This document shows positions 6,823 to 31,136 of a stretch of DNA of 43,381 bases, piece after piece. The notes below the pieces were generated by a model that was not told the DNA's origin, ran no database searches, and was given only the letters and a program-made list of their open reading frames with translations. This DNA is from a bacterium (GTDB lineage: Bacteria; Zhuqueibacterota; Zhuqueibacteria; Oceanimicrobiales; Oceanimicrobiaceae), in the NCBI GenBank assembly GCA_046757165.1, contig JBHHXT010000023.1, forward strand, positions 1 through 43,381, in the 5' to 3' direction. The position numbers and the translations under genes are program-made. Within the stretch, counting starts at the first letter, position 1; each line of letters begins with the position of its first letter.

Positions 6823-6835
6823 TTGGAGGCGTGCT

Positions 6836-8128: not shown

Positions 8129-8153
8129 GGGTTGGATTGTTCCATTGCTCCAT

Positions 8154-8243
8154 ACGCCGAAGGCGTTTCATAACAAAGCCCAGGGTCGCGAAGCGGACCC
8201 CGGGACCAGAGACATCAACAAAGCAAAAACCCTGAAAGGGTTT
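8154..8243. repeat. Triple-hairpin REP-like element
   Basis: ACGCCgaaGGCGT, CCCAGGGTCgcgaagcgGACCCCGGG and AAACCCtgaaaGGGTTT between bcrB and bcrA. Confidence 0.65.
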
Positions 8244-8265
8244 GACAAAGAATAAGGAGAACAGT

Positions 8266-9084
8266 ATGTCATACGCAGCCGGAGTGGACGTTGGCTCCAC
8301 GCAGACCAAAGCGGTCATCATCAACGAAGCAAGAGAGATTCTGGGACGATCTTTGATCGATACGGGGGCCAATGTCACCGCCGCTGCCCAAAGGGCGTTT
8401 CAGGAAGCCCTGGCGGACGCCAGGTTAGGCGACGAAGAAGTGGCGTATGTCGTGGGCACGGGTTACGGCCGCTATAAGGTCACCTTTGGCAACAAACAGG
8501 TGACGGAGATTAGCTGTCACGGGCGCGGCGCGGTGCACATGTACCCGACCACGCGCACCGTGATCGATATGGGCGGGCAGGACAGTAAGGCCATTCGTGT
8601 CAGTGACAACGGCGAAATCATCGATTTCTGCATGAACGACAAGTGTGCCGCCGGCACCGGACGCTTTCTTGGCGCCGCCTCGCAGGCGCTCGACATTCCG
8701 CTCAGCGATCTGGGCCCGACGGCGTTGAAGGCCGAAAAGCCGGTCCGGATCAGTACCACCTGTACCGTGTTTGCCGAATCGGAGGTGCTTTCCTGGCTCG
8801 GCAAGGGCAAAAAGGTGGAAGATATTCTCTGGGGCGTACACCAGTCGATTGCCGCGCGCTCGATTGGACTTCTGCGGCGCGTGGGCGTCGACGGGGAGGT
8901 CACCTTCAGTGGTGGGGTTGCCAAGAACGTCGGCATGGTCAAAGCTCTCGAAGATGGCCTGGGCAAGAAGGTCAACGTCGGCGAGGAGTCCCATTTCATG
9001 GGTGCACTGGGGGCGGCGCTATTTGCGCTGGACCATATCGTGGCAAGCAGAAAACCGGCAGCAAAGGAAGGAGAATTAGCATGA
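8266..9084 (+). CDS. bcrA: BCR ATP-dependent activator subunit A (short form)
   Basis: ASKHA motifs [47 protein letters not shown]; start at ATG 8266 with SD AAGGAG. Confidence 0.85.
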
Positions 9085-9905
9085 CTTACACCCTGGGACT
9101 CGACGTCGGCTCGACTTACACAAAGGCGGTCATTCTGGATGACACGGACCAGATGGTTTCGCACTGCATGGAGGCCACGGGCTCGAAGTTGATGGAGGTG
9201 GCTCAGCGAGTCACCGACACCGCCACCCGCTCAGCCGGGCTCACGCAGGCCGACATCGCCTATGTCATCACCACGGGTTACGGCCGGCATCTGATTCCCT
9301 TTCGCAACCTGCAGGTGACCGACTTGACCGCGACAGCCAGAGGCGCGAGATTCCTCTATCCCGGCACGCGCACGGTTCTCGACATCGGCGGGCAAACCAT
9401 GAAGGCAAGCCGGATCGATGAAGCGGCGAAGGTCGTCACCTTCCGGCTCAACGACAAATGCGCCGCGGGTACAGGCGCATTTCTCGAAAAAACCGTGCGC
9501 TACATGGGCTATGCCACCGGGGACATCGGCAAACTGCTCGAGCTGTCGAAAGAGAAAGTTCCAATCTCAGGCGTGTGTGCGGTGTTCGCAGAGTCCGAAG
9601 TCATCAGCCATCTCAGCGAAGGCGTGCCGCCGGAAGATATCATGTATGGCGCCATCCTGTCCCTGACCGACCGTTGCGTGCAGTTGATGAAACGGATCCG
9701 GTCTGAACCGCAGTACACACTGGTGGGAGGGATATTGCGCTGGCAGAGAGTGGCGAACGTCATCCGGGAGCGCTTGCAGCAGGAGGTCAACGTGCCGGAA
9801 GGGGAGATGCCACAATTCACGGCCGCCCTCGGGTGCGCCATTCTCGGACATATTCGTTTGCGCAAATTGGCGGCGGAGGGAATGGAGGCAGAGACGGTGG
9901 GCTGA
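9081..9905 (+). CDS. bcrD: BCR ATP-dependent activator subunit D
   Basis: ATGA overlap with bcr[45 protein letters not shown]. Confidence 0.85.
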
Positions 9906-10559: not shown

Positions 10560-13500
10560 ATGAGACGAATCAGATGTTCTGCTGCGATTCTGTTCGTGTT
10601 TTACCTGCTGCAACCCACGCGCGTTTTCTTGTCTGTCCCGAATCTGTTTGCTCAGACGCCTGAGACCCCCTACCCTATTCTCTTCGTCCATGGACTGGAG
10701 AGCAGTGATCAAACCTGGGATCGTACCATCAATGAGCTGGGAGTCTACGTTGGAGATTTTGGGGAGAGTCACGTCTTCCACGCGGTCCTGAACGCCTATG
10801 CAGATATGACAAATCTGTACGGGCCGGATGGGATAACGGGCAACAAAGATGACGATGTCCTGATTTTGTTCAATAATGAAGATAATCAGTTGGGAAACGG
10901 GCAAATCTATGCGATCAATTTTGAGAACTTCTGGAACCAGCAGCCTGACAATCCGCGCATCCTCAAACATCGTTCAGATACGCCAGGAAATGAAGAATCC
11001 CCCAGCAATCAAGCCGCCATTTACAAGCAAGGATACGCTCTGGGAAAGATGATTGAGGCCGTGATCCGGGCCTCAGGAGCCAGGAAAGTCATCCTGGTCG
11101 GGCATTCGATGGGCGGGCTCGCCATTCGTGAGTATTTACAGCGGAGAGAGAATGGGCGGCCCAAATGGTGGGTAGATCCGCAGGACGCTCAGAGCGGCCA
11201 CAAAGTGGCCAAAGTTGTCACCATTGGAACACCCCACCTGGGCAGCAATTTCCTCGATTGGCCATTCGGATTGGCCGAGCGAGAAGGGGAGGAGCAAAAA
11301 ACCGCCAGAATCCCCAATCTCAAGAGTGAGGCTGTAAGAGACCTTCGCTTTAACTACAACATCTTTGGACTACAAGGAAGATACTTGTTCGGCGGCGGCG
11401 AAGGCGTGGCCGATTTGCTCACTATGTTCTACAATATGGATGTCAACTGCGATGGGGATGAAAATGACGAAATCATTGGCCTGAATGAGGGGGAAGACGG
11501 CGAGACCGATAACGTGAGTATGCCGCTGCCGGACACCATCGAATACACCTGGATTACCTCGAATGCTACAGGCATATTCAACGGAGATGGGATCGTCGAT
11601 CTTTCGAGACAATGGCTGCATGTAAATGACACGCCTGCGCCCCTGGGTCTGGCTGATACCCTTTTGACCCACAGGCCGCACTTCGCGTTGCTTGGCAAAG
11701 CTGGTGAGACGGAAGATTTCGTCACCATCATTCGTGGACTCGATGAACCTGACACTCCGGCTCTGGCTTATGTTGTGCAGACGAACAAAGAGTACTGGGG
11801 ATTCAGAACGCTGCAATCAAACTGGCAAACGACCGATTACGATTGGTATAGATTTTCTTTCAACGGCGGAACGGTTCGGATATTGATTGGCCCGACCCAT
11901 GAGAGCTCAGGGCGGATTGACTTTTATGCACAACTGCCAGTATCGAATGCCAATTCCTCCCTATTCCTGACATTCAACGGGTCCAATCCAGTTGCGTATA
12001 CCCCACCTATTTCCTTGGAGGCAAACACCACCTACTATGTTCGTATTACAAACCATAATCTGGCACCCGATGATTGGCAATATCCGTACACGCTCAGGTT
12101 GGAGGGCACCGATGACCAGATTTCTAACGTCGACGTCGCCCTCGTCATCGACCGCTCCGGCAGCATGGAAGGCGAAAAACTCGCTGCCGCCAAAACGGCC
12201 GCCAAAAGCTTCGTCGGTTTTATGCAGGCGAAAGACAACCTGGCAATCGTCAGCTTTGCCACCAGCGCGACTGTGGCATTTCGATTGACCGAAATCACCT
12301 CAGATGCGACGAAGTCCGCAGCACAGAATGGCATCCAGGCCATCTCATCCGGAGGTGCGACAACCATCGGAGGCGGTATCCGGGTTGCACAGGACGAGCT
12401 CGACAAAGGGGACCGCGACCATCCTCATGCCATGCTGCTGCTAAGCGATGGTCAGGAAACCGCACCACCGGATGTCGTGGATGTACTCCCTTCCATTCCT
12501 GACAAGACCGACATCTACACCATCGGCCTGGGGGTCGACGCAGATCAAGACCTTTTGAGCAACATAGCCTCCCAAACCGGCGGCACGTTTCATTTTTCTC
12601 CAAGTGCGGATGAGCTGCAAAAGATCTACTTGCAGATTCAAGGCAAGCTGCGGGGGCAGCAAACCATCGCCTCGAACGAGGGCACGATTTCCCAGAATCA
12701 GAGCGTGTCGTATTCTGTCCCTTTGGATGGGCTGACGTCACAGGCGGTTTTTTCCATGCTGTTCGAAGGCAGCGACGTTGATCTGGAACTGGTCGCTCCG
12801 AGCGGCTCGCGCATCACGCCGCAGGTCGCGAGCTCCGATCCCGACATCACCTACAACGAGGGCGACACCTATGACTTCTACACGGTCTCCGCACCGCAAG
12901 ACGGCGAATGGACTTTGAAAATAACCGGAGTGGATGTGCCGACTCCGGAAACCTTCTTCACGAGCGTTCAAGTCAATTCCCAACTGAAAATGGAGGTCTT
13001 TCCGGACAAAGAGGAGTACAGTGCCGGGGAAGCCATCCTGCTCTCCGCCCGGCTTCAGGAAAACGGTGACACCATTGCGGGGGCATCTGTGACCGTCGAG
13101 GTCGTTGCGCCCTCTTCCAGCGTGACGCTCTATCGATTGGCCCGCCATGAGGCGGATGATGACGACCCTCGCCTGACCTGGATGGGCGATAATGCCGCCC
13201 CCCAGTTTGTGGCTTCAACCTTTACATTGTTCGACGATGGGCGTCACGGGGATGGCCAGGCGAACGATGGCGTCTACGCCAACCGCTTCACCAACACGGC
13301 CAGCGATGGCAGCTATACGTTTACGGTCGAGGCGTCCGGCCTTGCCTCCCAGGGAGGGGCGTTCCGGCGCGAAGCCATCCTCTCCACCATTGTGACGCCC
13401 GCAACCGGATTTATCCAGGTCACCAATCCCAACAGCGGCGATGTCTGGGAAAAAGGCACAGAGCACCGCATCAAATGGGATTCCAACGCTGGCGGCAATG

Positions 13501-15776
13501 TCAAGATCCGGCTCTATCGCGGCAGCGTTTTTGTGAAACGTATCATCAGCAGCACCGACAACGACGGCAATTACCGCTGGGTCGTACCGGAGCAAGTCGA
13601 GGCCGGCAGCGGGTACCGCATCCGTATTACCAGCAGGGCCAACAGCTCAATCGAAGATGACAGTGATGCATTCACTATCGCAGACCCGGCAGATGCAGAT
13701 ATCGCGCTGCTCGGGCTCTCAGGGGAAACCGTCTACTCGGTTCTCCTGCACCCGACCAATAAGGATATCATCTACGCGGGCACCAGGGACGTCGGGGTCC
13801 ACAAAAGCAGCGATTACGGCGGCACCTTCACACGCCTGACATCAGGGCTGACCGACCATAAGATATTCAAAATCCTGATGGACCCGGGCAATCCCAACGT
13901 CCTGTACCTGGGAACGGGCGGGGACAATAACAGCTCGTCGGAGAGTGTGTTCAAGAGCACAAACGCCGGCGCGAGCTGGGCGCAAAAGAACAGCGGCCTG
14001 CCGTCCAAATTTGTCTTTGCGCTGGCCCGAACGTCTGCCAACACGCTCTACGCCGGCACCAACGGCACGGGAATCTACAAATCTACCAGCGGGGCAACCC
14101 AATGGACTTCCGCCAACAGCGGTGTCGCTTCCGGCGTGGAGATTCATTCGTTCGCCGTTCACCCGAATGATTCCAGAACCCTCTTCGCCGGCACGAGAAG
14201 AGGTCTCATGTATAAAACCACCAATGGTGGCAGCACTTGGAGCCTGGTCGACCTGCCCGGCAATACCGACTATGTCTTGAGTATCGTTTTCGACCCGGCG
14301 AAGGCGAACACGATGTTTGTGGCCACCTTTGGACATGGCGTTTACAAAAGCACGAACGGCGGCAATAGCTGGTTCCAGACCAACGATGGTCTCGGAGACC
14401 TTCAGGTCAACCACATTGTCTTCACGCCGGGGGGAGAAATATTGCTTGGCACCCGGAGCGGAGGAATCTTCAAGAGTACAGATGGCGGCATAACCTGGTC
14501 GCACTTCGGCGGCGGCATTTTCAGCAAAGTACACCACCTGGTGTTTTCACGACTCGAACCGAATATCTTCTACGTCGGCGCCCGCGACGGCATCTATCGC
14601 GTCAACGACCCCAATGCCCTGTTTATCACCGTGACCTCGCCGGCCGTCGGCAGTGATTGGGAACAGGGAACAAATCACAACATCGAGTGGAGCTCGAATG
14701 CGACCGGCCAGGTTCAAATCAGCCTCCATCGCGGAGGCAATGAAATCGAAATCATTGCCGCGAATACCGGTAATGACGGCCAGCACACCTGGCAGGTGTC
14801 CAGTGACTTGCCCGCCGCCAACGACTACACCGTTCGAGTCGGAAGTGTGAGTCACAGCGCTCCTTTCGATTACAGCGATGAATTTGCTGTCTCAGAGACA
14901 CCGTTTCTCGCCATTCTCTCACCGTCTACGGACAGCGATTGGCAGAGAGGCTCGACCCAGACAATCGAGTGGACCTCCAATGCGGGTGGAAGCGTGAGAA
15001 TCCGGCTCTTTCGCGGCAACTCGATCATTCAAACCATAAGCAACACCACAGAAAACGATGGCAGCTTTCCATGGAGTGTCCCCACGAGCCTGACCGCAGC
15101 CGACGATTACCGCATTCGCATCACGAGTACGTCCACCAGTTCCCTAGAGGTCACGAGCGCAACGTTCACCATTTCGGACGCACCGTTTCTTCAGGTCGTC
15201 ATTCCAGACTCGGAGGATATCTGGCTGGCCGGGACGACGCAGACGATTGAGTGGGACTCAAATGTCCAGGGCAATGTCCGCATCCGGCTCTACCGCGGCG
15301 CTGCCCTGCAGCAAACCATCCGCAGCAGCACCCCCAACGACGGCAGCGATGACTGGAACATTCCGGGCACGATTCCGGCCGCTAATGATTACCGCATCCG
15401 GCTCACAAGTACCAGCAACAGCGCCCTGGATGATACCAGCGACGCCTTCACCATTGACAACGTCACCTCCGTTGAGCCGCGCGCGAATGGCGTTCCGAGG
15501 CATTATGCCCTCAGGCAGAACTACCCCAATCCGTTCAACCCTGAGACGGAGATTCGTTTTGAGCTGCCGCAGGCGCAACAGGTTGTTTTGACAGTTTACA
15601 GCTTGCTCGGGGAGGAAATCGTGCGACTTCTAAACGAAACCAAACCTGCGGGTGTTCATGCGGTGCAATGGAACGGCCGCGACAAGCGGGGGATGCAAGT
15701 TGCGAGCGGGATTTTTGTTTACCAGATGCGCGCCGGTGAGTTTGTCATGAGCCGCAAGCTGGTGTTGGTGCGCTGA
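10560..15776 (+). CDS. Secreted multidomain protein: alpha/beta hydrolase + vWA + choice-of-anchor-X-like + four Ser/Thr-rich Ig-like repeats + BNR propeller + FlgD/T9SS-type C-terminal domain
   Basis: Signal peptide; PILFVHGL, GHSMGG, GTPHLGS, DGIV; DRSGSM MIDAS and LLSDG; LFDDGRHGDGQANDGVY; KSTNGG.W Asp-boxes; LRQNYPNPFNP..W.GRD..G..VASGIF. Confidence 0.85.
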   Translation: MRRIRCSAAILFVFYLLQPTRVFLSVPNLFAQTPETPYPILFVHGLESSDQTWDRTINELGVYVGDFGESHVFHAVLNAYADMTNLYGPDGITGNKDDDVLILFNNEDNQLGNGQIYAINFENFWNQQPDNPRILKHRSDTPGNEESPSNQAAIYKQGYALGKMIEAVIRASGARKVILVGHSMGGLAIREYLQRRENGRPKWWVDPQDAQSGHKVAKVVTIGTPHLGSNFLDWPFGLAEREGEEQKTARIPNLKSEAVRDLRFNYNIFGLQGRYLFGGGEGVADLLTMFYNMDVNCDGDENDEIIGLNEGEDGETDNVSMPLPDTIEYTWITSNATGIFNGDGIVDLSRQWLHVNDTPAPLGLADTLLTHRPHFALLGKAGETEDFVTIIRGLDEPDTPALAYVVQTNKEYWGFRTLQSNWQTTDYDWYRFSFNGGTVRILIGPTHESSGRIDFYAQLPVSNANSSLFLTFNGSNPVAYTPPISLEANTTYYVRITNHNLAPDDWQYPYTLRLEGTDDQISNVDVALVIDRSGSMEGEKLAAAKTAAKSFVGFMQAKDNLAIVSFATSATVAFRLTEITSDATKSAAQNGIQAISSGGATTIGGGIRVAQDELDKGDRDHPHAMLLLSDGQETAPPDVVDVLPSIPDKTDIYTIGLGVDADQDLLSNIASQTGGTFHFSPSADELQKIYLQIQGKLRGQQTIASNEGTISQNQSVSYSVPLDGLTSQAVFSMLFEGSDVDLELVAPSGSRITPQVASSDPDITYNEGDTYDFYTVSAPQDGEWTLKITGVDVPTPETFFTSVQVNSQLKMEVFPDKEEYSAGEAILLSARLQENGDTIAGASVTVEVVAPSSSVTLYRLARHEADDDDPRLTWMGDNAAPQFVASTFTLFDDGRHGDGQANDGVYANRFTNTASDGSYTFTVEASGLASQGGAFRREAILSTIVTPATGFIQVTNPNSGDVWEKGTEHRIKWDSNAGGNVKIRLYRGSVFVKRIISSTDNDGNYRWVVPEQVEAGSGYRIRITSRANSSIEDDSDAFTIADPADADIALLGLSGETVYSVLLHPTNKDIIYAGTRDVGVHKSSDYGGTFTRLTSGLTDHKIFKILMDPGNPNVLYLGTGGDNNSSSESVFKSTNAGASWAQKNSGLPSKFVFALARTSANTLYAGTNGTGIYKSTSGATQWTSANSGVASGVEIHSFAVHPNDSRTLFAGTRRGLMYKTTNGGSTWSLVDLPGNTDYVLSIVFDPAKANTMFVATFGHGVYKSTNGGNSWFQTNDGLGDLQVNHIVFTPGGEILLGTRSGGIFKSTDGGITWSHFGGGIFSKVHHLVFSRLEPNIFYVGARDGIYRVNDPNALFITVTSPAVGSDWEQGTNHNIEWSSNATGQVQISLHRGGNEIEIIAANTGNDGQHTWQVSSDLPAANDYTVRVGSVSHSAPFDYSDEFAVSETPFLAILSPSTDSDWQRGSTQTIEWTSNAGGSVRIRLFRGNSIIQTISNTTENDGSFPWSVPTSLTAADDYRIRITSTSTSSLEVTSATFTISDAPFLQVVIPDSEDIWLAGTTQTIEWDSNVQGNVRIRLYRGAALQQTIRSSTPNDGSDDWNIPGTIPAANDYRIRLTSTSNSALDDTSDAFTIDNVTSVEPRANGVPRHYALRQNYPNPFNPETEIRFELPQAQQVVLTVYSLLGEEIVRLLNETKPAGVHAVQWNGRDKRGMQVASGIFVYQMRAGEFVMSRKLVLVR

Positions 15777-15989: not shown

Positions 15990-16346
15990 TCACAATCCGG
16001 AGGTCTCACCAGCGAAGCTGGCAACCGCCTCCTCAACACTCTCGAACACTTCGACCACCGTATCGATCTTCGTGACGTGGAAATAGTGCCGGGCGGCCCC
16101 TCGAAGATTCGCGAAACGGACATCCCCACCTCGTTTGCGCAAGGTCGTCAGACAACCGATGATGGTGCCAATGCCGAGACTGTTGATCCAGCGCACGTTG
16201 CGAAAATCTATCACCATCAACTCCGTGCCTGAGTCGATCACTTCTTTGAAGCGGTTGCACAAAAGTTGTGTTTCCGGCCCCCCCATGATCTTGCCAGAAA
16301 GGTGAAAGACCTTGACGAGGTTGTAACCATCTTCTGTGAACATCAT
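15990..16346 (-). CDS. STAS-domain anti-sigma factor antagonist
   Basis: Start at 16346 (SD AAGGAG); LSGKIMGG, VIDFRNVRWINSLGIG (phospho-acceptor Ser), FESVEEAVASF. Confidence 0.88.
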   Translation of the reverse strand: MMFTEDGYNLVKVFHLSGKIMGGPETQLLCNRFKEVIDSGTELMVIDFRNVRWINSLGIGTIIGCLTTLRKRGGDVRFANLRGAARHYFHVTKIDTVVEVFESVEEAVASFAGETSGL

Positions 16347-16619
16347 ATATATCTCCTTCTCAAAAGCCAGGTGACTCTCTGCGCCCATCCCGGCCGCAGG
16401 CCGTGCTTTTGAAATCATGTGAGTCAGAAGGTTTCCATCGCGATGAACATTCCAAGTCATCGATCTGGTTCAATTTCGTGTCGTGCGATGTTACCGGGAG
16501 TGAAGTATCAGACGTATAGGGGAGAATCGGAAACTCTCGGGATCAAATTCGGAAACCGCTACCACAAAAGACCTCAGTATTCGAACAGTACGTATTTGGC
16601 GCGTCAAAGTCAAGGATAT

Positions 16620-17900
16620 TTATTGTGTCGCGGCGACATTGGCTCGCTTTTCGAGTTTTTCAACCGTTCCGTCCAGGTGGACTCTGAACTTTTTGTGTTT
16701 GCCCTTCCTCACCAACAGCAGCATTTCCGTTGCCGGTTTCATTAAATCGACTGCGATAATCTTGCCATCATAGAATTCAGAGATGGTTTTGACCGTTGTG
16801 TGGGCAATGATGTGCGTTTTGCACCGGTAGGTCCTGAGCACTTTCTTGAGGTCCTTTTCCAGTCTGTCTGTCAGGACGTAGTCCCGATGCCAAAAGACGC
16901 TGGTTTCTCCGTAGAAAAAGTGCAGCCGCCTGTAGTAGGACAGAGAATCTATTTTCATGGCAGGGATGGAATCTTGCAAGAGATAGGCAAACGTTTCCTC
17001 ATTGATGAATTTCTGCAGCGAGTCGTTAAACACCTCGATTGAATAGTTGGCGTACAGCGGCGCCACCCCTCCGTGGGCGAACAAAATCTTGTCCATTTTG
17101 ATCAGCCCGGGCTTGGTGGCCAGCCATTTCCCCAGGACCGAGCGATGGACATCGTACATTTGCGAATAGGGAATGCGGTGTAAATGACTGATCATCTGCT
17201 CTTTGGGCGCGAGATAGCGCAGATCATTGCCAAAGGTCATGATCTCGTGATTTCCCAACACGAGGTGAACGCGACCGCCTGCCAGCTCAGCCTGTCTATC
17301 CAATTTGTACAGCAGCCATAGCGTTTTGGTGACATGAATCCCGCGATCAAAGAAATCCCCCAAAAGCACCAGATGCTTTTTGCGGGCTATCCAATCCAAA
17401 TTGGCATCGATGAGGCGAGCATTGCTGAGCAATTCGACCAGATGGTGAAACTCGCCGTGAAGGTCACCGATCACATAGATTGAATCAACTTTGCCAAAAA
17501 TTGCTCCGGGCCTCTTCGCGGGCAGTCGAATGACGGTTTTGTGGTTATCGAAGGGATTGCTCAGGCTGCCATAGTGAAGCGCAAAAACACCCACTTTTGG
17601 CTTATCAAAGGAGACTTGATGTGTCAGGGAAAGCGGGGTGGTGAAGTCAGCCAACGACTTGTCCGCGCTGAGGACTCTGAGAAATCCAGAATCCGTCGCC
17701 GCCGTGATCCAATGCACGTCTATTTGGTTTTCCTGCTCCTGGACCCACAACCCGTACTCCCCGCTGAATCTAAACTCATCATGTTCCCGGGGCGCAGCGG
17801 ATTCTGAGGGTTGGGCTGCTAAATGAAATGAATAAAGTTGCAGTGCAACAAAAAGGGATACAAAAACAGTGGGGCGAATGGATAAATCAATCCTGGTCAT
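16620..17900 (-). CDS. Exported Shewanella-like PPP metallophosphatase
   Basis: Signal peptide ending LAA|QP; GDLHG, GDFFDRG, GNHE, FAHGG, FWHR, IIAHT. Confidence 0.85.
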   Translation of the reverse strand: MTRIDLSIRPTVFVSLFVALQLYSFHLAAQPSESAAPREHDEFRFSGEYGLWVQEQENQIDVHWITAATDSGFLRVLSADKSLADFTTPLSLTHQVSFDKPKVGVFALHYGSLSNPFDNHKTVIRLPAKRPGAIFGKVDSIYVIGDLHGEFHHLVELLSNARLIDANLDWIARKKHLVLLGDFFDRGIHVTKTLWLLYKLDRQAELAGGRVHLVLGNHEIMTFGNDLRYLAPKEQMISHLHRIPYSQMYDVHRSVLGKWLATKPGLIKMDKILFAHGGVAPLYANYSIEVFNDSLQKFINEETFAYLLQDSIPAMKIDSLSYYRRLHFFYGETSVFWHRDYVLTDRLEKDLKKVLRTYRCKTHIIAHTTVKTISEFYDGKIIAVDLMKPATEMLLLVRKGKHKKFRVHLDGTVEKLEKRANVAATQ

Positions 17901-17938
17901 ATAAGGTTCCTTATGTGCTTGGCCCGGCGGGATTCAGG

Positions 17939-18904
17939 CTAAAACGTCTTCACCTTACTTTCGTCGACTCGTTTCAGCAGTTTTCGCAATCTCTTGTAGA
18001 CCCCGTTGATTTCGTAATTTGTCAGGCCGAATTGAATGATTCCGTTTGATCTTCGCACGCCTTTTTTCTTTGCCAGATTCTCAGTTTTTTCGGCCGGAAC
18101 GAGTTGTCCTTCGATGATTGAAAACTGGGCCACGACACCGAGGGTCTTTTCAAGGTCTTCCTTTTGTATCTGACGCAGTCTTGCGACCGTTTCTTTGGGC
18201 AGCCGATCGACGCGAAGGTCTTGCCAATCCACCCCCTTGTCGCTTTCCAGGCTGGCAAACGCCATGCTGTTGTCGACCACAAACACCCTTGGATTCTCCG
18301 GATCGGAGGACACAAGAAAATTGCCGACATTGGCATCTTTGTGTTTGACAAGATAAGATAAGATGTTCATATTTGCCAGATGTTTTGCATACGTCGTATC
18401 AGAACGAAATCTCGATTTGTCGTACACTCCCTCTGAAGTCACGCCTTCCAACCAGTACTGCAGACAAAAAAAGACGCAGTCCGTGCCGCTAAAAGTCGGG
18501 GAAACACCCGGTTCAATTTTGCGATACTCGCTCAGGGGCCAGGTTCGTCCGGTGGTCGGTGGCACAACATATTCTTGTGGCTCGAGAAACAGCTTTTGCA
18601 AGCGATAGGCCGCGATTTCATAGCGCGGTTCATTGTTGACCCCCCAGCCGCGTCTGGGCGCCCGTTTCCATTTTAGCTGCATATGTTTGCCGTCAGGCCA
18701 TTTCACAATGACGCGCTTTGGAAGATCTCCTTCGAAGCGAGCATCCCTCATTTTGAAAATGTCAAAGGATTCATGCTGGAGTTTTTGCTCGATTTCTTCG
18801 ATCGGGTGAAGAATGTTGCTGTCCTGAGCCAGGACCGGCGTGGCCAGCAGGAGCGTGCCACAGAATATCTGAAAAATTGCCCCCGTATGTCCAAATCTTT
18901 TCAT
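17939..18904 (-). CDS. Exported Fam20/PI4K-like atypical kinase (variant catalytic loop)
   Basis: Signal peptide ending VLA|QD; LKWK, YEIAAYRL..VPPTTGR, LQYW, HKDANVGNFL, VDNSMAF. Confidence 0.7.
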   Translation of the reverse strand: MKRFGHTGAIFQIFCGTLLLATPVLAQDSNILHPIEEIEQKLQHESFDIFKMRDARFEGDLPKRVIVKWPDGKHMQLKWKRAPRRGWGVNNEPRYEIAAYRLQKLFLEPQEYVVPPTTGRTWPLSEYRKIEPGVSPTFSGTDCVFFCLQYWLEGVTSEGVYDKSRFRSDTTYAKHLANMNILSYLVKHKDANVGNFLVSSDPENPRVFVVDNSMAFASLESDKGVDWQDLRVDRLPKETVARLRQIQKEDLEKTLGVVAQFSIIEGQLVPAEKTENLAKKKGVRRSNGIIQFGLTNYEINGVYKRLRKLLKRVDESKVKTF

Positions 18905-18923
18905 GGACGACCTCTATCCTCCA

Positions 18924-19847
18924 TTAGCTGTGTTTCTTGTGCTTCCTTTTTTCTATCCGTTTGATGATTTCCTTTCGTGTCGAAAGAAAGAGCTCGAGCC
19001 GGTCAGGTTCAAGCACGTCCCTGAGCGACTCTTCAAACTTTCTCGCCGGAATCTTCTTGAATCTTTCATAGACCGGACCCAGCTTACGCGGATTGGCGAT
19101 CTTTTGGATTTCCTGATGCCAATAGGTCACAGCGAAACCAGTATTGTCATGTCGAAAGGTGCGGTTGTGGTCAATCGCCACAATATCACCGGTTTCCCGC
19201 ACCAGCCAGTTATTCTCATGGCGGTCGCTGTTGCCAATGATGGCATCAAAAAGCCTGAGCTTGTCCGTCTTCTCGCTCCCAACTTCCATGGCTGGCTTGC
19301 AATTCTTGACAAAGTACATCAACGAGCCCCTCTCGAGGGTGCCGTCGGGCAGTTCTATTCCCCGCATGATCGTCAGGGGAGTCAAGTTGAATCCCAACAG
19401 CTCATCGAGCTTGTAAGCTGCCGCTTCCCGCTTGACCGGCCCCAAAGAATCGGACTTCTCGACTTTGAAAATCCCCTTGACCCCTTTGCGGAAGCGGACC
19501 AGGAAAGTTTCCGAGACATTTATGGGCTTGCCAAACTTCCTGACCGAAACCGGCCGGGAGTGCATGATTTGCCGTAGCGTATCGAGAATCTGAACCGCCA
19601 TGGCGCGGTCTCCGATCTCCAGACACTGCCAGGCCGCCTCCTGATACAGATGGCTGGACAAGTAGTCTTGAACCGTTTCCGCAACCCCTGCACCAGGCCG
19701 AAGACCAATCGTACCGGAAATGTCCTCGCCGGATGGTGGCCGGGTGCCGATCGAAAAATACAGAATCAGTACCGCCGCTAACACCCCGCCTGCCACCAGG
19801 ATCCGCGCCCATCTGCCGGGGAACAAAGATTTGGATTTGTCGTTCAT
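18924..19847 (-). CDS. Membrane-anchored Fam20/PI4K-like atypical kinase
   Basis: Start at 19847 (SD AGGAGG); single N-terminal TM; GIFK, REAAAYKLDELLGF.LTP, GSLMYF, FDAIIGNSDRHENNW, IDHNRTF. Confidence 0.78.
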   Translation of the reverse strand: MNDKSKSLFPGRWARILVAGGVLAAVLILYFSIGTRPPSGEDISGTIGLRPGAGVAETVQDYLSSHLYQEAAWQCLEIGDRAMAVQILDTLRQIMHSRPVSVRKFGKPINVSETFLVRFRKGVKGIFKVEKSDSLGPVKREAAAYKLDELLGFNLTPLTIMRGIELPDGTLERGSLMYFVKNCKPAMEVGSEKTDKLRLFDAIIGNSDRHENNWLVRETGDIVAIDHNRTFRHDNTGFAVTYWHQEIQKIANPRKLGPVYERFKKIPARKFEESLRDVLEPDRLELFLSTRKEIIKRIEKRKHKKHS

Positions 19848-20331: not shown

Positions 20332-21234
20332 TCACTCTTTTTGAGGTGGGAACCCCTCGGCGTCCCGAAACTCCTTTCCCAGATAGTTCTGCACCGCTTC
20401 GAGATCATCCGGCTGCGTCAAATCCGGCACGTGCTCGCGCAGGGGAATGGTCCAAACAGACTTTGGATGTGCCCACGCCATCATGACCACAGCCGCCGGC
20501 AGCTCTTTTTCGCCGCGTACAGAGTGCAACGGAACCGCCTGTAAAAAGGGCAGGACCAGGTCATAGTCCAGTCGAAAGATATTCATGCTGACGCCGACGG
20601 TGGCGTCTCTGGCCACGGCCCTGGCTACTTGTTCGGAGGAGGGTTTTTCGATGATGTCGACAAGGTAGCCCTCTTCATCTTTCTCAGTAATCGCGAATCT
20701 CTGCACGCGGCTTTTTTCGAACTGGAGACCGTCACGGTCATAATCGATCATGGCGTTGCGATGGGAGGAGGTCGCCAGCAGAGCAAGGGCCCGCTGTGAG
20801 TACAGATTGTCGCCATTGCAAACGATGAAGGTGGCGCCACGCCAGTCGTCCCGAATCAGGAGCGCCTGCAGCAGGGCATCGGCCGTTCCCAGCGGCTTTT
20901 GACGGCCAGGTGGGATCGTTTGTGTGGCGTAAGAGATGGATAGCCCATGATAGATATTGGCGCGTTCCTGCAGGCCGTAGTGCTGGCGAATCGACTGGTC
21001 GTGCACGCCTGTGACGATGACGATGTCCCGATAGCCCGCGGCGCGGCTGTTGTAGAGTAAGTAATCGAGAAATGGCCGGCGGCTCTCGCCGACCCGGATC
21101 ATGCCCTTGCTCCTTTGTTGCGCGTCCTGGAGCAGGCGGGCATCGATCTGGTCGGCGCGCGCTGATGGCGCTTTCATGCGGGAGGCGATGCCGCCTGCGA
21201 GAATGATCAGTCTGTCTGTTTTCATGTCTGCCAT
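20332..21234 (-). CDS. Sugar-phosphate nucleotidyltransferase
   Basis: ILAGGIASRMK, KGMI, RPFLDY, KPLGTADA, NGDNLY, IEKP, GEKELP. Confidence 0.85.
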   Translation of the reverse strand: MADMKTDRLIILAGGIASRMKAPSARADQIDARLLQDAQQRSKGMIRVGESRRPFLDYLLYNSRAAGYRDIVIVTGVHDQSIRQHYGLQERANIYHGLSISYATQTIPPGRQKPLGTADALLQALLIRDDWRGATFIVCNGDNLYSQRALALLATSSHRNAMIDYDRDGLQFEKSRVQRFAITEKDEEGYLVDIIEKPSSEQVARAVARDATVGVSMNIFRLDYDLVLPFLQAVPLHSVRGEKELPAAVVMMAWAHPKSVWTIPLREHVPDLTQPDDLEAVQNYLGKEFRDAEGFPPQKE

Positions 21235-21247
21235 GATCGATTCTTTC

Positions 21248-21520
21248 CCACCGAATGTCGCCGAAGCCACGGAGTTTCGCCGAAGGTTTCTTGGGTCCCA
21301 CCGAAGGATTCTGCAAGAAAACCCATTTCGGTCGTGCTCCGGGGGATCGGTTAAGCTTGACGGTTCGGGTAGTTCTTAATTCTTTGCATTGTCATTTCGC
21401 TGTTTCATTTTTTCAATATGATTTCTTACAAGAAATGCAAGAATGGATCTTTAAGCGACAAGTAGTGTTCTTCAAACAAATTCCTCGGTGAACCTCGGTG
21501 GCTTCGGCGACCTTCGGTGG
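21248..21520. repeat. Pair of ~38-bp imperfect inverted repeats bracketing an AT-rich spacer (MITE-like)
   Basis: CCACCGAATGTCGCCGAAGCCACGGAGTTTCGCCGAAGG (21248-21286) versus the reverse complement of 21483-21520, CCACCGAAGGTCGCCGAAGCCACCGAGGTTCACCGAGG. Confidence 0.65.
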
Positions 21521-21528
21521 TAAGGGAA

Positions 21529-22611
21529 TTAGTCCTGGCGTACGCCTTCGGCACTTCGGACGAGAGAGGCTTTTCCGCCGGCCTTGTCGATCGCCCGTGC
21601 GACCTCTTGCGGATTCTCGGGTGCGTAGGCGAACATGCAGCCGCCGCCGCCAGAGCCATTGATCTTGGCGCCGAGCGCCCCGGCATCCAGGGCGGCCGCG
21701 ATCATGCCCTCGATCTTCGGTGTGGAGATGTGAAGCACGTCGCGCAAGATGCGGTGGTGCTCATTGAGCAAGCTGCCGAGCTGGCGGTGATTCAGAGCGC
21801 TTTGCTGCAGCAAATGCCTGGCCTGCAACGTCATCTGATGATTCTTGACGGTACCGCGCAGCAGCTCGAGTTGCTGCTCTGACAGCTCCCGGGCAAAGTC
21901 CTGCAGGCTGTCGGGGTCCGCGTGTTGAAGCGAGAAGTCCGCGTGTTTGCCGGTCAGGATGTTGCAGACTTCCGTGACATCGCTTCTCACACGCGCGAGA
22001 ATGGTTTTGGTATCTTTGGGTTCGCCTGAATCACCGAGCACGAAAGTGCCGATGGGGGCATGCAAGGGCTGGACGCGCATTTCCGGCCACGATGCAAGAC
22101 AGATCGTCCCGCCAAACGCGGCGGCATACTGGTCCATCCTGCCGCCCGGCTCCGCGAACTCCAGCACCTCGGCTTCGTAGGCGTACTCGGCAATCTCTTC
22201 CGGCCTGAGCCAGGCCGCTTGCTCGCTCATCCGCGCCAGGAACGTGACCCATGCGACCACCAGGGCTGACGAGCTTGCGGTGCCAGCGTTGATGGGAATG
22301 TTGCCGCGCACCGTGCAGTCGAACCCGGAACGAAACGTGAAGCCGTGTTTCGCCAACACGTTGACTACAGACCTGAAGTAGTCGCGTTCTTTGACGTAGG
22401 GCAAGCGGCCGGTGATTTCAAAACGTTCCGTGCCACCAGTGTCGGGCAAATTCAAACATACGGCCAGGTCCCTGCGCCGCCGGCCATCAACCTGAAGACG
22501 CAGGGAAATGGCACACGCAATGACAGGCAGAAGCAGATAGTCCTGGTGTTCTCCAAAAAGACAAATCCTGCCCGGGGCAGAGACGCTCAGGCTGTCAACT
22601 TTTTCCGCCAT
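21529..22611 (-). CDS. GHMP-family sugar kinase (galactokinase-like)
   Basis: APGRICLFGEHQDY, IPINAGTASSSA, GRMDQ, GAKINGSGGGG. Confidence 0.88.
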   Translation of the reverse strand: MAEKVDSLSVSAPGRICLFGEHQDYLLLPVIACAISLRLQVDGRRRRDLAVCLNLPDTGGTERFEITGRLPYVKERDYFRSVVNVLAKHGFTFRSGFDCTVRGNIPINAGTASSSALVVAWVTFLARMSEQAAWLRPEEIAEYAYEAEVLEFAEPGGRMDQYAAAFGGTICLASWPEMRVQPLHAPIGTFVLGDSGEPKDTKTILARVRSDVTEVCNILTGKHADFSLQHADPDSLQDFARELSEQQLELLRGTVKNHQMTLQARHLLQQSALNHRQLGSLLNEHHRILRDVLHISTPKIEGMIAAALDAGALGAKINGSGGGGCMFAYAPENPQEVARAIDKAGGKASLVRSAEGVRQD

Positions 22612-24397
22612 ACCCTCCCTGCAACCAGATCCTGATCAGCCCGTACGTCGCGGCCAGCGAGGTGAAGGTCGTCACCACCGCCGGCGCGAGATTGCCGTAC
22701 AACCAGAAGCCGACAGCAAAGAGCAGGCTGTAAACCAGGAGCAAACCCAGAAAGACACTGAGCAGGCTGCTCGGGAGATCCCATTTTTGCTGCAAGTACA
22801 GCTCGACCTTCTCACCTTTTTCTCTGGCTTGCTGCAGCACGGCGCTCCAGCCCGGCCCACCGGGATGGACCAGCCGGTAAAAATCGAGCAGCGTCTTCTG
22901 CTCTGTCGGTTTGGAAAGAAACGTCACCGCCAGCCACCCGGCCGTGGTGATGGCCACGCCGATCACGAGCTGCAGCCAGGGAGCGAGCTCAGGGAATCCC
23001 AGGCTGACATGGACAAGGTGGAAATAGATGGCGACCAGGAAAGAGACTGTCATGGCCGCGATCTCGCTGGCCGCATTGATGCGCCACCAAAACCACCTGA
23101 GCAGGAACAACAGGCCGGTGCCGGCACCGATCTGCAGCAGAATATTGAAGGCTTGCAGGGCGTTGCTCAAAAGCAGGGCAAAAAGAGCGGACGCCACCAT
23201 CAGGAGCACAATCGTGACGCGACCCACCAGGACTTGCTGTTGCTCGCTTGGCGCCCTGGTCACGAAGCGCTGGTAGAAATCGTTCACCACGTACGACGCC
23301 CCCCAGTTCAGGTGCGTCGAAAGGGTGGACATGACCGCTGCGATGATCGACGCCACCACCAGGCCGAGCAAGCCGTGTGGCAGGTAGGTAAGCATGGCAG
23401 AATACGCCAGGTCATCTTTGACAATCTCTGCCGAGATATGCGGAAAAGCGGCTCTCAGCGAGTCGAGATCCGGGTAGATGATGATGGAAGCGAGGGCCAC
23501 GATGATCCACGGCCACGGGCGCAGCGCATAGTGGGCGAAGTTGAAAAACAGGGTGGCACCGATGGCATGCCCTTCGTTCCTGGCCGCCAGCATGCGCTGG
23601 GCGATATAGCCGCCACCGCCCGGCTCGGAGCCCGGATACCAGACGCTCCACCACTGAACCGCGATCGGAATCAGGAAGACGGTCAGCACGAGCGAGGTGT
23701 TGGAAAAATCAGGCAGGAACGTCAGCCGGTCGGCAACATTCGGATGGCTCAGCAGCCCTTGCAGACCGCCCACTTGTGGCAGATTCAGCACCACGATGGC
23801 TGCGGTCACGGCGCCAGCCATGGCGATGATAAACTGAACGAAGTCCGTGATCAGGACGCCGCGCAGGCCACCGAGCATGGTGTAGATGACGGTGACCGCC
23901 GAAGTCAGCAGAATCGTCTGCACCGGGGAGATGCCGAGCAGGACACCGCCGGCCTTGATGGCCGCCAGCAGCACGGTCGCCATAATTATTACATTAAAAA
24001 AGATGCCGAGATAGAGCGCCCGGAAGCCACGCAGGAAGGCCGCTGCTTTGCCGCTGTAGCGGATTTCGTAGAACTCGATGTCCGTCAGCACGCCGGAGCG
24101 GCGCCAGAGTTTGGAGTAGATGAACACGGTCACCATGCCCGTGATCAGAAACGCCCACCATTGCCAATTGCCGGCCACGCCGTTCTGGCGCACCATGTTG
24201 GTGACCAGGTTGGGTGTGTCGGCAGAAAAGGTGGTGGCCACCATCGAGACGCCGAGCAACCACCACGGCATGCTTCGACCTGAAGCGAAAAACTCCGTTG
24301 CGCTCGAACCGGCGCGCCGGACGACGCTCAACCCCACAGCCAGCGACAGAACAAAAAAAGCGATGACCGATATCCAATCCACAAATTCGAGTGTCAT
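22595..24397 (-). CDS. Sodium:solute symporter (SSS family)
   Basis: Multiple TM helices; FF.SGRSMPWW, SMVATTFSADT, GGLRGVLITD..Q, YIAQRML, AAVMSTLS. Confidence 0.92.
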   Translation of the reverse strand: MTLEFVDWISVIAFFVLSLAVGLSVVRRAGSSATEFFASGRSMPWWLLGVSMVATTFSADTPNLVTNMVRQNGVAGNWQWWAFLITGMVTVFIYSKLWRRSGVLTDIEFYEIRYSGKAAAFLRGFRALYLGIFFNVIIMATVLLAAIKAGGVLLGISPVQTILLTSAVTVIYTMLGGLRGVLITDFVQFIIAMAGAVTAAIVVLNLPQVGGLQGLLSHPNVADRLTFLPDFSNTSLVLTVFLIPIAVQWWSVWYPGSEPGGGGYIAQRMLAARNEGHAIGATLFFNFAHYALRPWPWIIVALASIIIYPDLDSLRAAFPHISAEIVKDDLAYSAMLTYLPHGLLGLVVASIIAAVMSTLSTHLNWGASYVVNDFYQRFVTRAPSEQQQVLVGRVTIVLLMVASALFALLLSNALQAFNILLQIGAGTGLLFLLRWFWWRINAASEIAAMTVSFLVAIYFHLVHVSLGFPELAPWLQLVIGVAITTAGWLAVTFLSKPTEQKTLLDFYRLVHPGGPGWSAVLQQAREKGEKVELYLQQKWDLPSSLLSVFLGLLLVYSLLFAVGFWLYGNLAPAVVTTFTSLAATYGLIRIWLQGGYGGKS

Positions 24398-25346: not shown

Positions 25347-26606
25347 CTAGAAGCTGCTGAGTAGCCACCAATCGGGCAACGCGGTGACCTTTGAATTGAT
25401 TTGCAGGATTTTCCGACCCGGATAGATAACATACCCTTTTGCCACATTGGGGTTATCGGACAAAAAGGACATGAGGCCGGATGAGTCTCGTTTCGTTAAT
25501 CGGGATGAAGCTTTGATTTCAAAGGGCAGGACTTTGCCGTTTGCTTCAATTATGAGATCAACTTCGGCGCCGTCCTGGGTACGCCAATAATAGGCGTCAA
25601 AATGAGCGCCGGAATTATGTAAGATTTTAAATAGCTCGATGCAGACAAAGCTTTCGTATATATTTCCATAATATTGAAGTTCTTTGGCAATAGCATTACT
25701 AAAGTTAGTATTCAGTGAATTGTGAAGCAAAAGCGGATCAATGGCAATGATTTTATTTTGCTTGACCAGTCTTTTCTTCGGATTTCTATGATAGACTTCA
25801 AGTGTCACGACCAGCATCATCGCTTTTAATTGATAGAGAAAACTATCGATTGTGGGTTGACTGACGCCGACAGCTTGAGCCAATGCATTTTTATTCACGA
25901 GTTTTCCGCTTTGGATAAACATGAGTCGAACAAACTTTTCAAAAGCAGCGAGGTTTCTGATTTGGAATTGTTCGATCAGAATAGGGAAAACGTAGGTGGT
26001 TAAATAATCTCGAATCCAACGGATTTGATACTCACGCTCGGAGGCTAATGCAGGAATCGGATATCCACCCCAGACCAGCATTCTTTCTCTTAAGCGATTG
26101 ATTTGAATATAATCAATCCTGTCAGGTGTGCTGAGATTGCGGACGTCAGAATCAAGGAGTCGGTTTAATCCACAATGATTTGTTCCACCGCTCAGCTCAC
26201 AAAAAGAAAGTGGGTAAAGGGAAAGGATCGAAATTCTTCCGGCTAAGGATTCTTTGATTTTTTTCAGGAGAAGATAATTACCGGAATTCGCAATGCATAT
26301 TTTTGATGGCTGATTTTCATTTTCATCAATTAACATCTTCACAGCGTCAAAAACCGTTGGCACCTTTGCTGGTTCATCAATGAAAAAAAAACGGTCCGGC
26401 TGATAATTATTTTTGAGATAGCCGTAAGGATCATTCTTGATCTCTTCTCGTATCATGGGATCATCGAGAGAAAGATAGACGCCCGGGTGCTCTTTTAAGA
26501 CTTCCTTTAGAAGATATGATTTTCCAACTTGCCGGGGACCAATGAGAGCACAAGCTCGTTCGGTATGAATTCTTTCAAGCAAAGTGGATTGGAGCTGTCT
26601 TTTCAT
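25347..26606 (-). CDS. AAA_14 ATPase with C-terminal DUF4143 (PD-(D/E)XK-like)
   Basis: GPRQVGKS, FIDE, ESLAGR, WGGYP, YYWRTQDGAEVDLI..PFEIK; AT-rich. Confidence 0.88.
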   Translation of the reverse strand: MKRQLQSTLLERIHTERACALIGPRQVGKSYLLKEVLKEHPGVYLSLDDPMIREEIKNDPYGYLKNNYQPDRFFFIDEPAKVPTVFDAVKMLIDENENQPSKICIANSGNYLLLKKIKESLAGRISILSLYPLSFCELSGGTNHCGLNRLLDSDVRNLSTPDRIDYIQINRLRERMLVWGGYPIPALASEREYQIRWIRDYLTTYVFPILIEQFQIRNLAAFEKFVRLMFIQSGKLVNKNALAQAVGVSQPTIDSFLYQLKAMMLVVTLEVYHRNPKKRLVKQNKIIAIDPLLLHNSLNTNFSNAIAKELQYYGNIYESFVCIELFKILHNSGAHFDAYYWRTQDGAEVDLIIEANGKVLPFEIKASSRLTKRDSSGLMSFLSDNPNVAKGYVIYPGRKILQINSKVTALPDWWLLSSF

Positions 26607-26660
26607 GACAACAAGTATACTAAGATATACTTTAAAAAACAAGCTCTTTTTTTAAAGTAT
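26607..26660 (-). promoter_or_regulatory. Probable leaderless promoter plus 13-bp palindrome for the AAA gene
   Basis: Minus strand TTGTTT (26642-26637), 17 nt, TATACT (26619-26614), 7 nt, ATG; ATACTTTAAAAAA-N8-TTTTTTAAAGTAT at 26627-26660. Confidence 0.5.
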
Positions 26661-26662
26661 GC

Positions 26663-27340
26663 GGTGAGGGCAAGAACCACAAGCAAGCCGAAAAATGGTT
26701 CAAGCAAGCGGTTGCGCTCAATGACTCCAGTTGTGAATACAATTTGTGGCTTGCCCGCACTTATGCTACCAGAATCCGGAAGGTGAATATTTTCAGCAAA
26801 CTATCTCTCGCGAAAAAGGCCAGGAAGACTTTTGAGCTGGCGGTCAAGTTAGATGAAAACAACGTTGAGGCACGCGAGGGCTTGATCATCTACCATTTGA
26901 ACGCCCCGGGGATCGCAGGTGGTGATTTGAACAAAGCCCTGCAGCAAGCGCAAATTCTGGTGAAAATGGATGAACGGAAAGGCCGCACGCTTTTGGCGCG
27001 GCTCTACCAGAAAAAGAAGAAGATGAGTCTAGCGGCAAAGGAATATCAACGTTTGGAGGCGCTCTGCGGCGATTCTCCTGAGTGCTCTGACTTCTACAAC
27101 AGCTACGGATACTTTCTCTTGCAACAAAAAAGATATGACGAGGCGATCGTCAAGTTTCAGAAACAAGTCGAGTTGGCGCCCGACAAAGCCAACCCGCATG
27201 ACAGTCTGGGGGATGGTTATCGCGCTGCTGGGCGGCTGGCAGATGCTGCGGATGAATATCGCAGGGCTTTGCAAATCGACGAGACGTTCGAGCCTTCCGG
27301 AAAGAAGTTGGAAAAGGTCATGAAACAGTTAAATGACTGA
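26663..27340 (+). pseudogene. 5'-truncated TPR protein
   Basis: The frame is open upstream of the TTG at 26744 with TPR-like KQAEKWFKQAVALNDSSCEYNLWLARTY; APGIAGG, YNSYGY, NPHDSLGDGY; no credible start or signal peptide. Confidence 0.65.
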
Positions 27341-27367
27341 TCACAACCAGAAGCAAGGAACGATAGC

Positions 27368-29788: not shown

Positions 29789-29881
29789 CGGCGCAGAGCG
29801 GAGATCCCGATCCGTCGGAATGAAGAGTTTGTAATCGTTTTGGGTGAGTTTTCGGGTTTGATTACAAGGCACCGTCAGCAG

Positions 29882-30815: not shown

Positions 30816-30894
30816 GGTTCCTATGGGGTTCGATACTTGCAATATTGCAATATAAGCTTATTTGGGGTTTGAGACAAACCATTTTTCAGAAACT

Positions 30895-31100: not shown

Positions 31101-31136
31101 CGCGGAGGTCCGGCTTTTGACGGATGGATTTTCTGA

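Follow-up and report, generated by a model that had tools for sequence, protein, structure and literature searches.

Fam20 kinases, which phosphorylate S-x-E proteins or xylose and show dimer activation, work outside the cytosol, and the eukaryotic secretory lumen is fed by a carrier of its own, SLC35B1/AXER. The bacterial periplasm is held to lack ATP, and reversible ATP-dependent phosphorylation in that compartment would therefore be a new kind of envelope regulation. CotH, CtkA, HipA and MavQ belong to the same broad group of atypical kinases and are bacterial. CotH has its role in spore-coat assembly, effectors act in the host cytoplasm and HipA in the cytoplasm; none of the four is known to us to occur together with both an exported phosphatase and a carrier for nucleotides. 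Here we analysed a stretch of 43,381 nucleotides (nt) from a bacterium of the Oceanimicrobiaceae (Zhuqueibacterota), which will be referred to as the window. Three genes on its minus strand encode two putative kinases, named kinase A and kinase B, and a Shewanella-like PPP metallophosphatase, all with predicted export signals, and we know of no characterised bacterial system of this kind. The conserved core of the locus is the pair of kinase B and phosphatase with kinase A as an occasional extra, and genes for NTT-family ATP/ADP translocases recur as neighbours of kinase B. The module is real, conserved and undescribed in the literature searched, and the mechanism proposed below, a periplasmic phosphorylation cycle fed by the translocase, is plausible. 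The features of the locus are as follows.

18924-19847, minus strand: kinase A, 307 amino acids (aa), N-terminal membrane anchor and Fam20/PI4K2-type kinase domain, accessory member of the locus
19746..19802, minus strand: hydrophobic anchor of kinase A (residues ~16-34), followed by a PPxxEDISGTIG stretch
17939-18904, minus strand: kinase B, 321 aa, predicted signal peptide and Fam20/PI4K2-type fold, core member
18827..18904, minus strand: predicted Sec/SPI signal peptide of kinase B (residues 1-26), with the predicted cleavage between VLA and QDSN
16620-17900, minus strand: Shewanella-like PPP metallophosphatase, 426 aa, predicted signal peptide and beta-rich N-terminal domain, core member

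A preliminary description of this DNA, made from the sequence, had pointed to three tightly spaced minus-strand genes, and the open reading frames and gaps were found as described there (19 nt between kinases A and B, 38 nt between kinase B and the phosphatase). The start of kinase A at 19847 has an AGGAGG site and is shared by its homologues; a longer frame from 20015 was rejected, as it lacks such a site and the homologues start at the inner methionine. The host genome assembly comprises 6.09 Mb in 531 contigs and carries a kinase B paralogue at C208:7499-8482, and the close homologues bearing names belong to KSB1 and Calditrichota records. Scanning the locus for promoters and terminators yielded matches at chance level only.

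Kinase folds and phosphatase family

AlphaFold models were obtained with pLDDT values of 92.4 for kinase B and 84.7 for kinase A, and structure comparison revealed a kinase fold for both, no non-kinase fold being seen. Kinase B matched 5xom (Hydra Fam20; Z 17.0, root-mean-square deviation (rmsd) 4.5, 250 residues aligned), 5yh0 (16.2) and PI4K2a (15.3), and more weakly CtkA (Z 11.7) and CotH (Z 10.3), in agreement with Foldseek. Kinase A matched 5yh0 (Z 17.5, rmsd 3.5, 240 aligned), 5xom (17.1) and PI4K2a (15.5). The Fam20 kinases (Fam20C, Fam20B and the pseudokinase Fam20A, as given in the available text of PMC5865150) are thus the best structural match, with Z 16-17.5 and rmsd 3.5-4.5 over 230-254 residues. 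They are followed by the type II phosphatidylinositol 4-kinases (PI4K2, PF00454) at Z 15.3-15.5, at most 2 Z units lower, while CotH, CtkA, HipA and MavQ reach Z 9-13; CotH itself resembles Fam20C according to the accessible part of PMC12189002. Kinase A lies above the Pfam cut-off of 27.1 bits for PF00454 (E 7e-9, 36.4 bits), whereas kinase B remains under it with 18.6 bits, a weak match (E <= 0.05) being found in 89/118 rows of its family alignment. Unlike PI4K2, which faces the cytosol, both window kinases carry predicted export leaders.

Conservation was analysed in alignments of 118 rows for kinase B (the best 120 of 641 matches minus two partial proteins) and 15 rows for kinase A, catalytic roles being assigned by alignment. 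The beta3 Lys, the alphaC Glu, the catalytic Asp and the metal-binding Asn and Asp are present in both kinases. For kinase A these are K128, E141, D208-R-H210, N213 and D226, of which K128, D208 and D226 are conserved in 15/15 rows, N213 in 14/15 and E141 in 12/15. The corresponding residues of kinase B are K78, E96, H188-x-D190-x-N192-x-x-N195 and D211, with N195 and D211 kept in 118/118 rows, D190 in 117/118 and K78 and E96 in 116/118 each. With this catalytic set, kinase activity is very likely. No similarity between kinases A and B was detected by BLAST, and they are linked at the profile level only (96.3%, E 2e-9); the kinase-B profile gave chance matches only against solved sequences.

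Both kinases had been said to align motif by motif with Fam20. This held for kinase A, whose EAAAYKLD and FDAIIGNSDRH...IDHNRTF motifs align, weakly (E 0.022), with Hydra Fam20 5xom, but only partly for kinase B, where EIAAYRL..VPPTTGR and VDNSMAF are present and GSL and DRH are missing. The DRH loop is found in 15/15 members of the kinase A family (GNSDRHENN in the window), whereas kinase B has D-[SA]-N in its place, within the loop HKDANVGN. Further likeness to Fam20 lies in the predicted export signal ahead of the kinase domain and in the triple fusions described below, which pair an active-type kinase with a degenerate one. Differences are the low identity (10-21%), the smaller domain, the bacterial origin, the pairing with a dedicated phosphatase and the absence of several family features. 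The available text of PMC5865150 lists four conserved disulfides and the motifs D/N-F/H-F-Y-F-S/T-D and C-D/S-Y-Y-C as features of Fam20 and Fam20C. Kinase A and mature kinase B have two Cys each, none of them invariant, and both motifs are absent from the two sequences. PF06702 (Fam20C) matched neither window kinase and weakly (E <= 0.05) matched 4/118 kinase-B rows and 2/15 kinase-A rows. Membership in the Fam20 family was therefore rejected: kinases A and B resemble Fam20 in fold and layout but stand outside the family, so that the likeness to Fam20C proposed earlier is upheld for the fold, nearest to Fam20 and then PI4K2 in both models, and not for Fam20C membership.

Proteins encoded at L147:1763-4636, L149:1924-3576 and similar loci join a distant relative of the kinase A domain to a phage Mu F head-morphogenesis domain, and a viral fold search returned phage proteins similar to these.

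The window phosphatase matches Pfam Metallophos, and its closest solved structure is the Shewanella phosphatase 2z72 (PPI; E 4e-41, residues 138-418), the next family following at E 4e-6. The motifs GDLHG, GDFFDRG, GNHE and HGG as well as H367 are intact, and all three PPP signature motifs are present (ligands were checked by the motifs in the accessible part of PMC535813). D146, H148, D182, D185, R186, N217, H218, H276 and H367 are invariant in the 24/24 rows of an alignment chosen from 38 phosphatases found. In contrast to Shewanella-like phosphatases (Shelphs), its closest family, the window protein has VDLM for the (I/L/V)D(S/T)G motif, of which most rows keep the Asp and not the S/T-G; it also has a longer N-terminal beta domain and a fixed kinase partner.

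The conserved pair and its predicted export

Gene neighbourhoods were compared for the best 79 of 263 kinase-B relatives in GTDB, and a phylum survey covered 121 genomes of the home phylum, with kinase B in 16 and the phosphatase in 13. Pairs or fusions of the kinase with a Shewanella-like phosphatase, for which the preliminary description had suggested a search, proved to recur. The phosphatase was found in 38/79 kinase-B loci, in 31 of which it follows kinase B immediately and in the same orientation, and 12 of the 13 phosphatase genomes in the home phylum carry kinase B, adjacent in 11. The pairing occurs on both sides of the main split in an 85-row kinase tree, which was built by a quick method with SH-aLRT support only. 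In addition, all of the longer kinase-B homologues (7/7) are leader-bearing phosphatase fusions, distributed over four places in the tree and occurring in both orders (four with the kinase first, one with the phosphatase first and two with a third, kinase-A-like domain). These last two are triple fusions of kinase B, PPP and kinase-A-like domain with signal peptides, and their third domain has lost both catalytic Asp. A supposed further fusion, the distant phosphatase of G040, was discarded; it is not fused to a kinase and has a secretion tail instead.

The idea of a conserved kinase-kinase-phosphatase unit, in contrast, had to be abandoned. No separate kinase A gene was detected in the 79 kinase-B loci, kinase A is present in 2/21 genomes of the host family, and it matches 3/121 genomes of the home phylum, one of them weakly and in a 1114-aa frame. 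Five other close kinase A relatives from metagenomes (L141-L145) have neither phosphatase nor kinase B nearby. Since pairing and fusion recur while kinase A rarely accompanies kinase B, the conserved core is the kinase B-phosphatase pair. Kinase A appears to be an additional kinase, tethered to the membrane, that joined the operon in the host lineage; it may bring in a further substrate or serve as an activating partner. In one genome of another genus (G051) the order is kinase A, a frameshifted kinase B remnant (L140:2118-2376 on G051:C74, corresponding to residues 12-69, E 8e-9) and phosphatase; as the remnant lies between the other two genes, the triple existed there as well. G051 carries five other kinase-B matches, one with stops.

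In one clade of Gemmatimonadota (L031, L052, L065, L074) kinase B and the phosphatase gene, which is inverted, are separated by a gene for a Hanks-type kinase; the identity of this kinase was checked in L031 and L052. A record titled archaeon (L029) and a Marinisomatota record (L028) share an identical kinase B, which likely reflects a binning or labelling error.

Export was called by a hydrophobicity rule and by conservation in the families. Each of the three window proteins has a single N-terminal hydrophobic stretch and no further transmembrane segment, consistent with the export signals originally claimed for all three, and the leaders are conserved across the families: the rule identified them in 113/115 kinase-B rows whose leader is at least 12 residues long, in 13/14 kinase-A rows and in 24/24 phosphatases. 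Control families gave 0/9, 0/8, 0/7, 0/7 and 1/7 for cytoplasmic proteins, 3/31 for receivers and 8/10 for an exported family. The pattern in the families is stronger evidence than the rule. Within the kinase-B family the leaders share 15% identity as compared to 54% for the mature part, and the cleavage site has Ala at -1 in 88/118 rows and Gln at +1 in 94/118. The Bacteroidetes Q-rule was dropped as support for this site because, according to the available text of PMC5837995, it does not hold for all of the FCB group. Relatives of kinase A use anchors, cleavable signals and lipoboxes interchangeably; since basic residues precede the anchor of kinase A, an N-in/C-out orientation is likely. 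A Pfam scan of kinase B and the phosphatase revealed neither a sorting tail nor another extra domain. Taken from these sequence features, export of both proteins to the periplasm is predicted with high confidence. A kinase fold, a recurring pairing and leaders predicted throughout the families were thus found on the three points on which the preliminary description could have failed.

The N-terminal module of kinase A (window 19700-19847), consisting of a basic stretch, a membrane helix and PPxxED[IV]SGTIG, seems mobile. It also heads the kinase-B homologue P0089 and an unrelated repeat protein (C78:4016-4984), whose gene has an ECF sigma/anti-sigma pair on one side and an Omp85-like gene on the other. 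The module possibly serves as a sorting or anchoring signal.

Linkage to NTT translocases and the proposed mechanism

A recurring neighbour of kinase B is a gene for a protein of ~1050 aa with TLC/NTT, HEAT and cNMP-binding domains, followed by genes for a receiver protein (RR) and a histidine kinase (HK) without a clear sensor. This architecture is exactly that of the NTT-HEAT(-cNBD) fusion carriers of Major, Embley and Williams (2017, PMC5381601), whose function is called unknown there, with uptake or exchange roles proposed; unlike the present loci, the main text of that paper names neither exported kinases nor a periplasmic ATP supply. An NTT gene lies within 6 kb in 25/79 kinase-B loci and in 19/41 of those with both flanks long. 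At least four gene orders were observed, NTT-RR-HK-kinase(-PPP), NTT-kinase(-PPP), kinase-PPP-NTT-RR-HK and kinase-NTT(-PPP), the last one on the other side of the kinase tree. In the home phylum NTT was detected in 16/16 kinase-B genomes as compared to 19/105 without kinase B, and the two agree exactly within the families f4 (5/7), f14 (2/3) and f12 (1/2). Kinase-B genomes without an adjacent NTT carry one elsewhere in 45/48 cases, the three misses being assemblies of 1.2-1.5 Mb. The base rate of NTT is 14/111 genomes in Marinisomatota, where both kinase-B genomes were positive, and at least 35/121 in Gemmatimonadota, where all five were positive with a protein query; in four out of four Gemmatimonadota kinase-B genomes drawn at random, NTT lies 0-4 kb upstream.

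The host genome contains three NTT genes, on contigs C24, C128 and C273, all scoring above the PF03219 cut-off (47.5, 63 and 57.3 bits, respectively). One of them belongs to the following cassette.

G000:C24:36425-41622 (L086): NTT-HEAT, cNMP-binding gene, receiver, GAF-histidine kinase

Its genes are the best match for 3/5 operon NTTs queried (C128 for the other two), for 3/3 receivers and for 2/3 histidine kinases. The host system appears to be split, with the enzymes on C23 (the window) and NTT-HEAT, cNMP-binding protein, receiver and GAF-histidine kinase on C24. The C24 receiver is of a conserved 'FLxLETxY' type which follows NTT-HEAT in KSB1, Marinisomatota and Gemmatimonadota loci.

Two further kinds of exported proteins were found beside NTT genes. 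The first is the Omp85-linked lipoprotein P0137, which in the host genome stands in one row with the third NTT and has two further copies, on contigs C93 and C489.

G000:C273:458-6508 (L085): Omp85, Omp85, P0137 lipoprotein, single-domain NTT

Its family was detected in 30/121 home-phylum genomes, 28 of them with NTT and 21 within 5 kb of it. P0137 shows kinase-like motifs with invariant K/E/D/N and Atlas neighbours Fam20C and HipA at 0.79 or less. It has no match in Pfam or among solved sequences, and its profile matches kinase B at only 5.7%, in the region of the catalytic loop; a kinase fold was therefore not assigned, the invariant motifs being the one line of evidence for it. The second kind came from the five NTT genomes of the home phylum that lack both kinase families. 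In 3/3 of these examined, NTT-HEAT lies beside a leader-bearing PPDK_N protein, the remaining 2/5 giving marginal matches.

L115:6758-14765, L116:4525-12533 and L117:2090-10187: NTT-HEAT and 970-aa leader-bearing PPDK_N (ATP-grasp) protein

At these three loci NTT-HEAT is also flanked by two leader-bearing proteins of the beta-lactamase fold. The 970-aa protein is a candidate for a third exported ATP user.

In the mechanism that we propose, kinase B and the phosphatase would be exported to the periplasm and act there as a writer/eraser pair, most likely on envelope proteins, and an NTT-family translocase would export ATP in exchange for ADP left by the kinase and phosphate released by the phosphatase. 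As the kinase makes ADP and the phosphatase makes phosphate (Pi), both of which are return cargo, translocase, kinase and phosphatase would close a cycle. According to the available text of PMC3306366, plant NTT1 counter-exchanges ATP for ADP and Pi, and E. coli expressing NTT1 releases ATP upon addition of ADP outside. The HEAT-cNMP tail, the receiver and the histidine kinase might read carrier turnover as a signal. We lean, on balance, towards this explanation as a whole. Among its parts, a common substrate of kinase B and phosphatase is to be expected with good confidence, ATP export by the linked NTT is reasonably likely, and a protein as substrate, rather than a glycan, lipid or small molecule, could go either way. 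A protein is favoured because the partner is a relative of protein phosphatases and the genes that recur nearby serve signalling rather than glycan or lipid functions. If the explanation is true, it provides a function for the NTT-HEAT-cNBD carriers, left unexplained in free-living bacteria by PMC5381601, and bacterial relatives of the Fam20 fold would already be working outside the cytoplasm. More tentatively, free-living diderms might run NTTs in reverse as ATP exporters powering interchangeable periplasmic ATP-using enzymes (kinase B with phosphatase, the putative Omp85-linked lipoprotein kinase and the exported PEP-synthase-like enzyme), with HEAT-cNMP, receiver and sensor-less histidine kinase reading the turnover. 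Such a system would be a prokaryotic counterpart of secretory-pathway phosphorylation doubling as a flux-sensing signalling route, a view that we consider possible and still doubtful. No description of a kinase-phosphatase-NTT module was found in the literature searched, most subscription papers lying outside this search, and the kinase-phosphatase module is not described in the accessible parts of PMC5865150, PMC535813, PMC3306366, PMC12189002, PMC9758233 and bioRxiv 10.64898/2026.09.18.752743.

Several observations weigh against the proposed mechanism. There is no NTT in the window, and both phosphatase and NTT are missing from the surroundings of eight Marinisomatota-type loci (seven so titled and one that is near-identical). 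No conserved substrate gene was detected among the neighbour clusters of kinase-B loci, and the hydrophobicity rule gave false calls on thioredoxin reductase (7/7). Fisher tests of co-occurrence were not significant outside the home phylum (p 0.12, 0.07) and overstate it because the genomes are kin, a kinship that also inflates all counts; since 23/25 NTT-flanked loci are from Gemmatimonadota, the adjacency has few independent origins. The link holds in one direction only: kinase B is absent in 12/14 Marinisomatota NTT genomes, where NTT-HEAT lies by PhoH and other genes, 19/35 Gemmatimonadota NTT genomes have neither kinase family tested, and many NTT-HEAT genes have unrelated neighbours and no kinase. 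The linked NTTs are distant from the solved carriers 9j3j/9j3n (E 6e-7 to 3e-9), and the Lys in the GKSGG stretch of carriers is retained in C273, several NTT-HEAT copies, C24 among them, having another residue there; the numbering of the AtNTT1 specificity residues (K155, E245, K527) could not be mapped onto the linked NTTs. Moreover, NAD or other nucleotides are the cargo of some NTTs (PMC5381601).

The same NTT-fed periplasmic cycle might act on a glycan, lipid or small molecule, for envelope decoration or solute trapping. The best folds for kinase B include Hydra Fam20, which is a xylose kinase (Z 17.0), and PI4K2 (Z 15.3), Fam20B acting on xylose and PI4K2 on phosphatidylinositol, and in one lipoprotein-kinase locus PAP2 takes the place of the phosphatase. 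The Asp-x-His pair with which Hydra Fam20 binds xylose (available text of PMC5865150) is retained in kinase A, and bacterial PPPs are broad in specificity (accessible part of PMC535813). However, kinase B has Asn at the His position, and it is signalling genes that recur in the neighbour clusters, with no glycosyltransferase or lipid gene among them, so that a non-protein substrate is regarded as rather unlikely. Less likely again, the enzymes might use ATP from outside (lysed cells, hosts, biofilm) or leave in vesicles, with the NTT importing nucleotides and being linked to them only via external nucleotides. Secreted kinases of similar fold are known, such as CtkA (Z 11.7 to the kinase B model), which acts away from the producing bacterium, and many NTT genes stand without a kinase beside them. 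The NTTs characterised so far function in uptake (PMC5381601). Nevertheless, both enzymes are free of sorting tails and additional domains, ATP theft would hardly be needed by free-living bacteria with genomes of 4-8 Mb, and three unrelated exported families of ATP-using type directly adjoin NTT genes.

That the kinase folds are nucleotide-binding receptors or pseudokinases, which detect nucleotides in the periplasm on behalf of the NTT-HEAT-cNMP/two-component cassette with no stable phosphorylation involved, would fit the receiver and histidine kinase genes at most NTT-linked loci, where the histidine kinase lacks an obvious sensor, as well as the loss of both catalytic Asp in the third domain of the triple fusions. 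The almost invariant catalytic set of kinases A and B and the kept or fused phosphatase make this very unlikely. We give hardly any credence to cytoplasmic enzymes with leaders that are not export signals. The hydrophobicity rule does produce false positives, but a variable leader, Ala at -1, a conserved mature start and several signal types within one family argue for export, and the rule called 0-1 of 7-9 proteins in each of the five control families from the cytoplasm and 3/31 receivers.

Neighbouring genes

The NTT-HEAT-cNMP genes of Marinisomatota (L118-L123, L128-L133) recur with PhoH-PIN and an exported HTNNTNGALENCYC-motif protein that has no Pfam match.

In the window, the phosphatase gene is followed after 159 nt by one further minus-strand gene.

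15990..16460, minus strand: STAS (anti-sigma antagonist-like) gene

As no STAS cluster is among the 45 largest neighbour clusters of kinase-B loci, this gene probably lies outside the conserved unit. Upstream of kinase A (20332-24397, minus strand) are genes for a sodium:solute symporter, a GHMP (galactokinase-like) kinase and a nucleotidyltransferase, a set for cytoplasmic sugar salvage which is 484 nt from kinase A and absent among the conserved neighbours. A 1738-aa secreted protein (10560-15776, plus strand) combines alpha/beta hydrolase, vWA, choice-of-anchor X and Vps10-like propeller domains with four Kre9/KNH Ig repeats and a FlgD/T9SS-like tail. A plus-strand cluster at 1734-9905 contains genes for a zinc dehydrogenase, two enoyl-CoA hydratases, two HGD-D and two BadF/BcrA proteins, which, from Pfam matches and general knowledge of the pathway, we take to resemble the anaerobic benzoyl-CoA reductase pathway. 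The region 25347-32408 (minus strand) is lower in GC content and carries two AAA_14/DUF4143 genes and an AbiEii-type nucleotidyltransferase gene around a MacB/FtsX permease.

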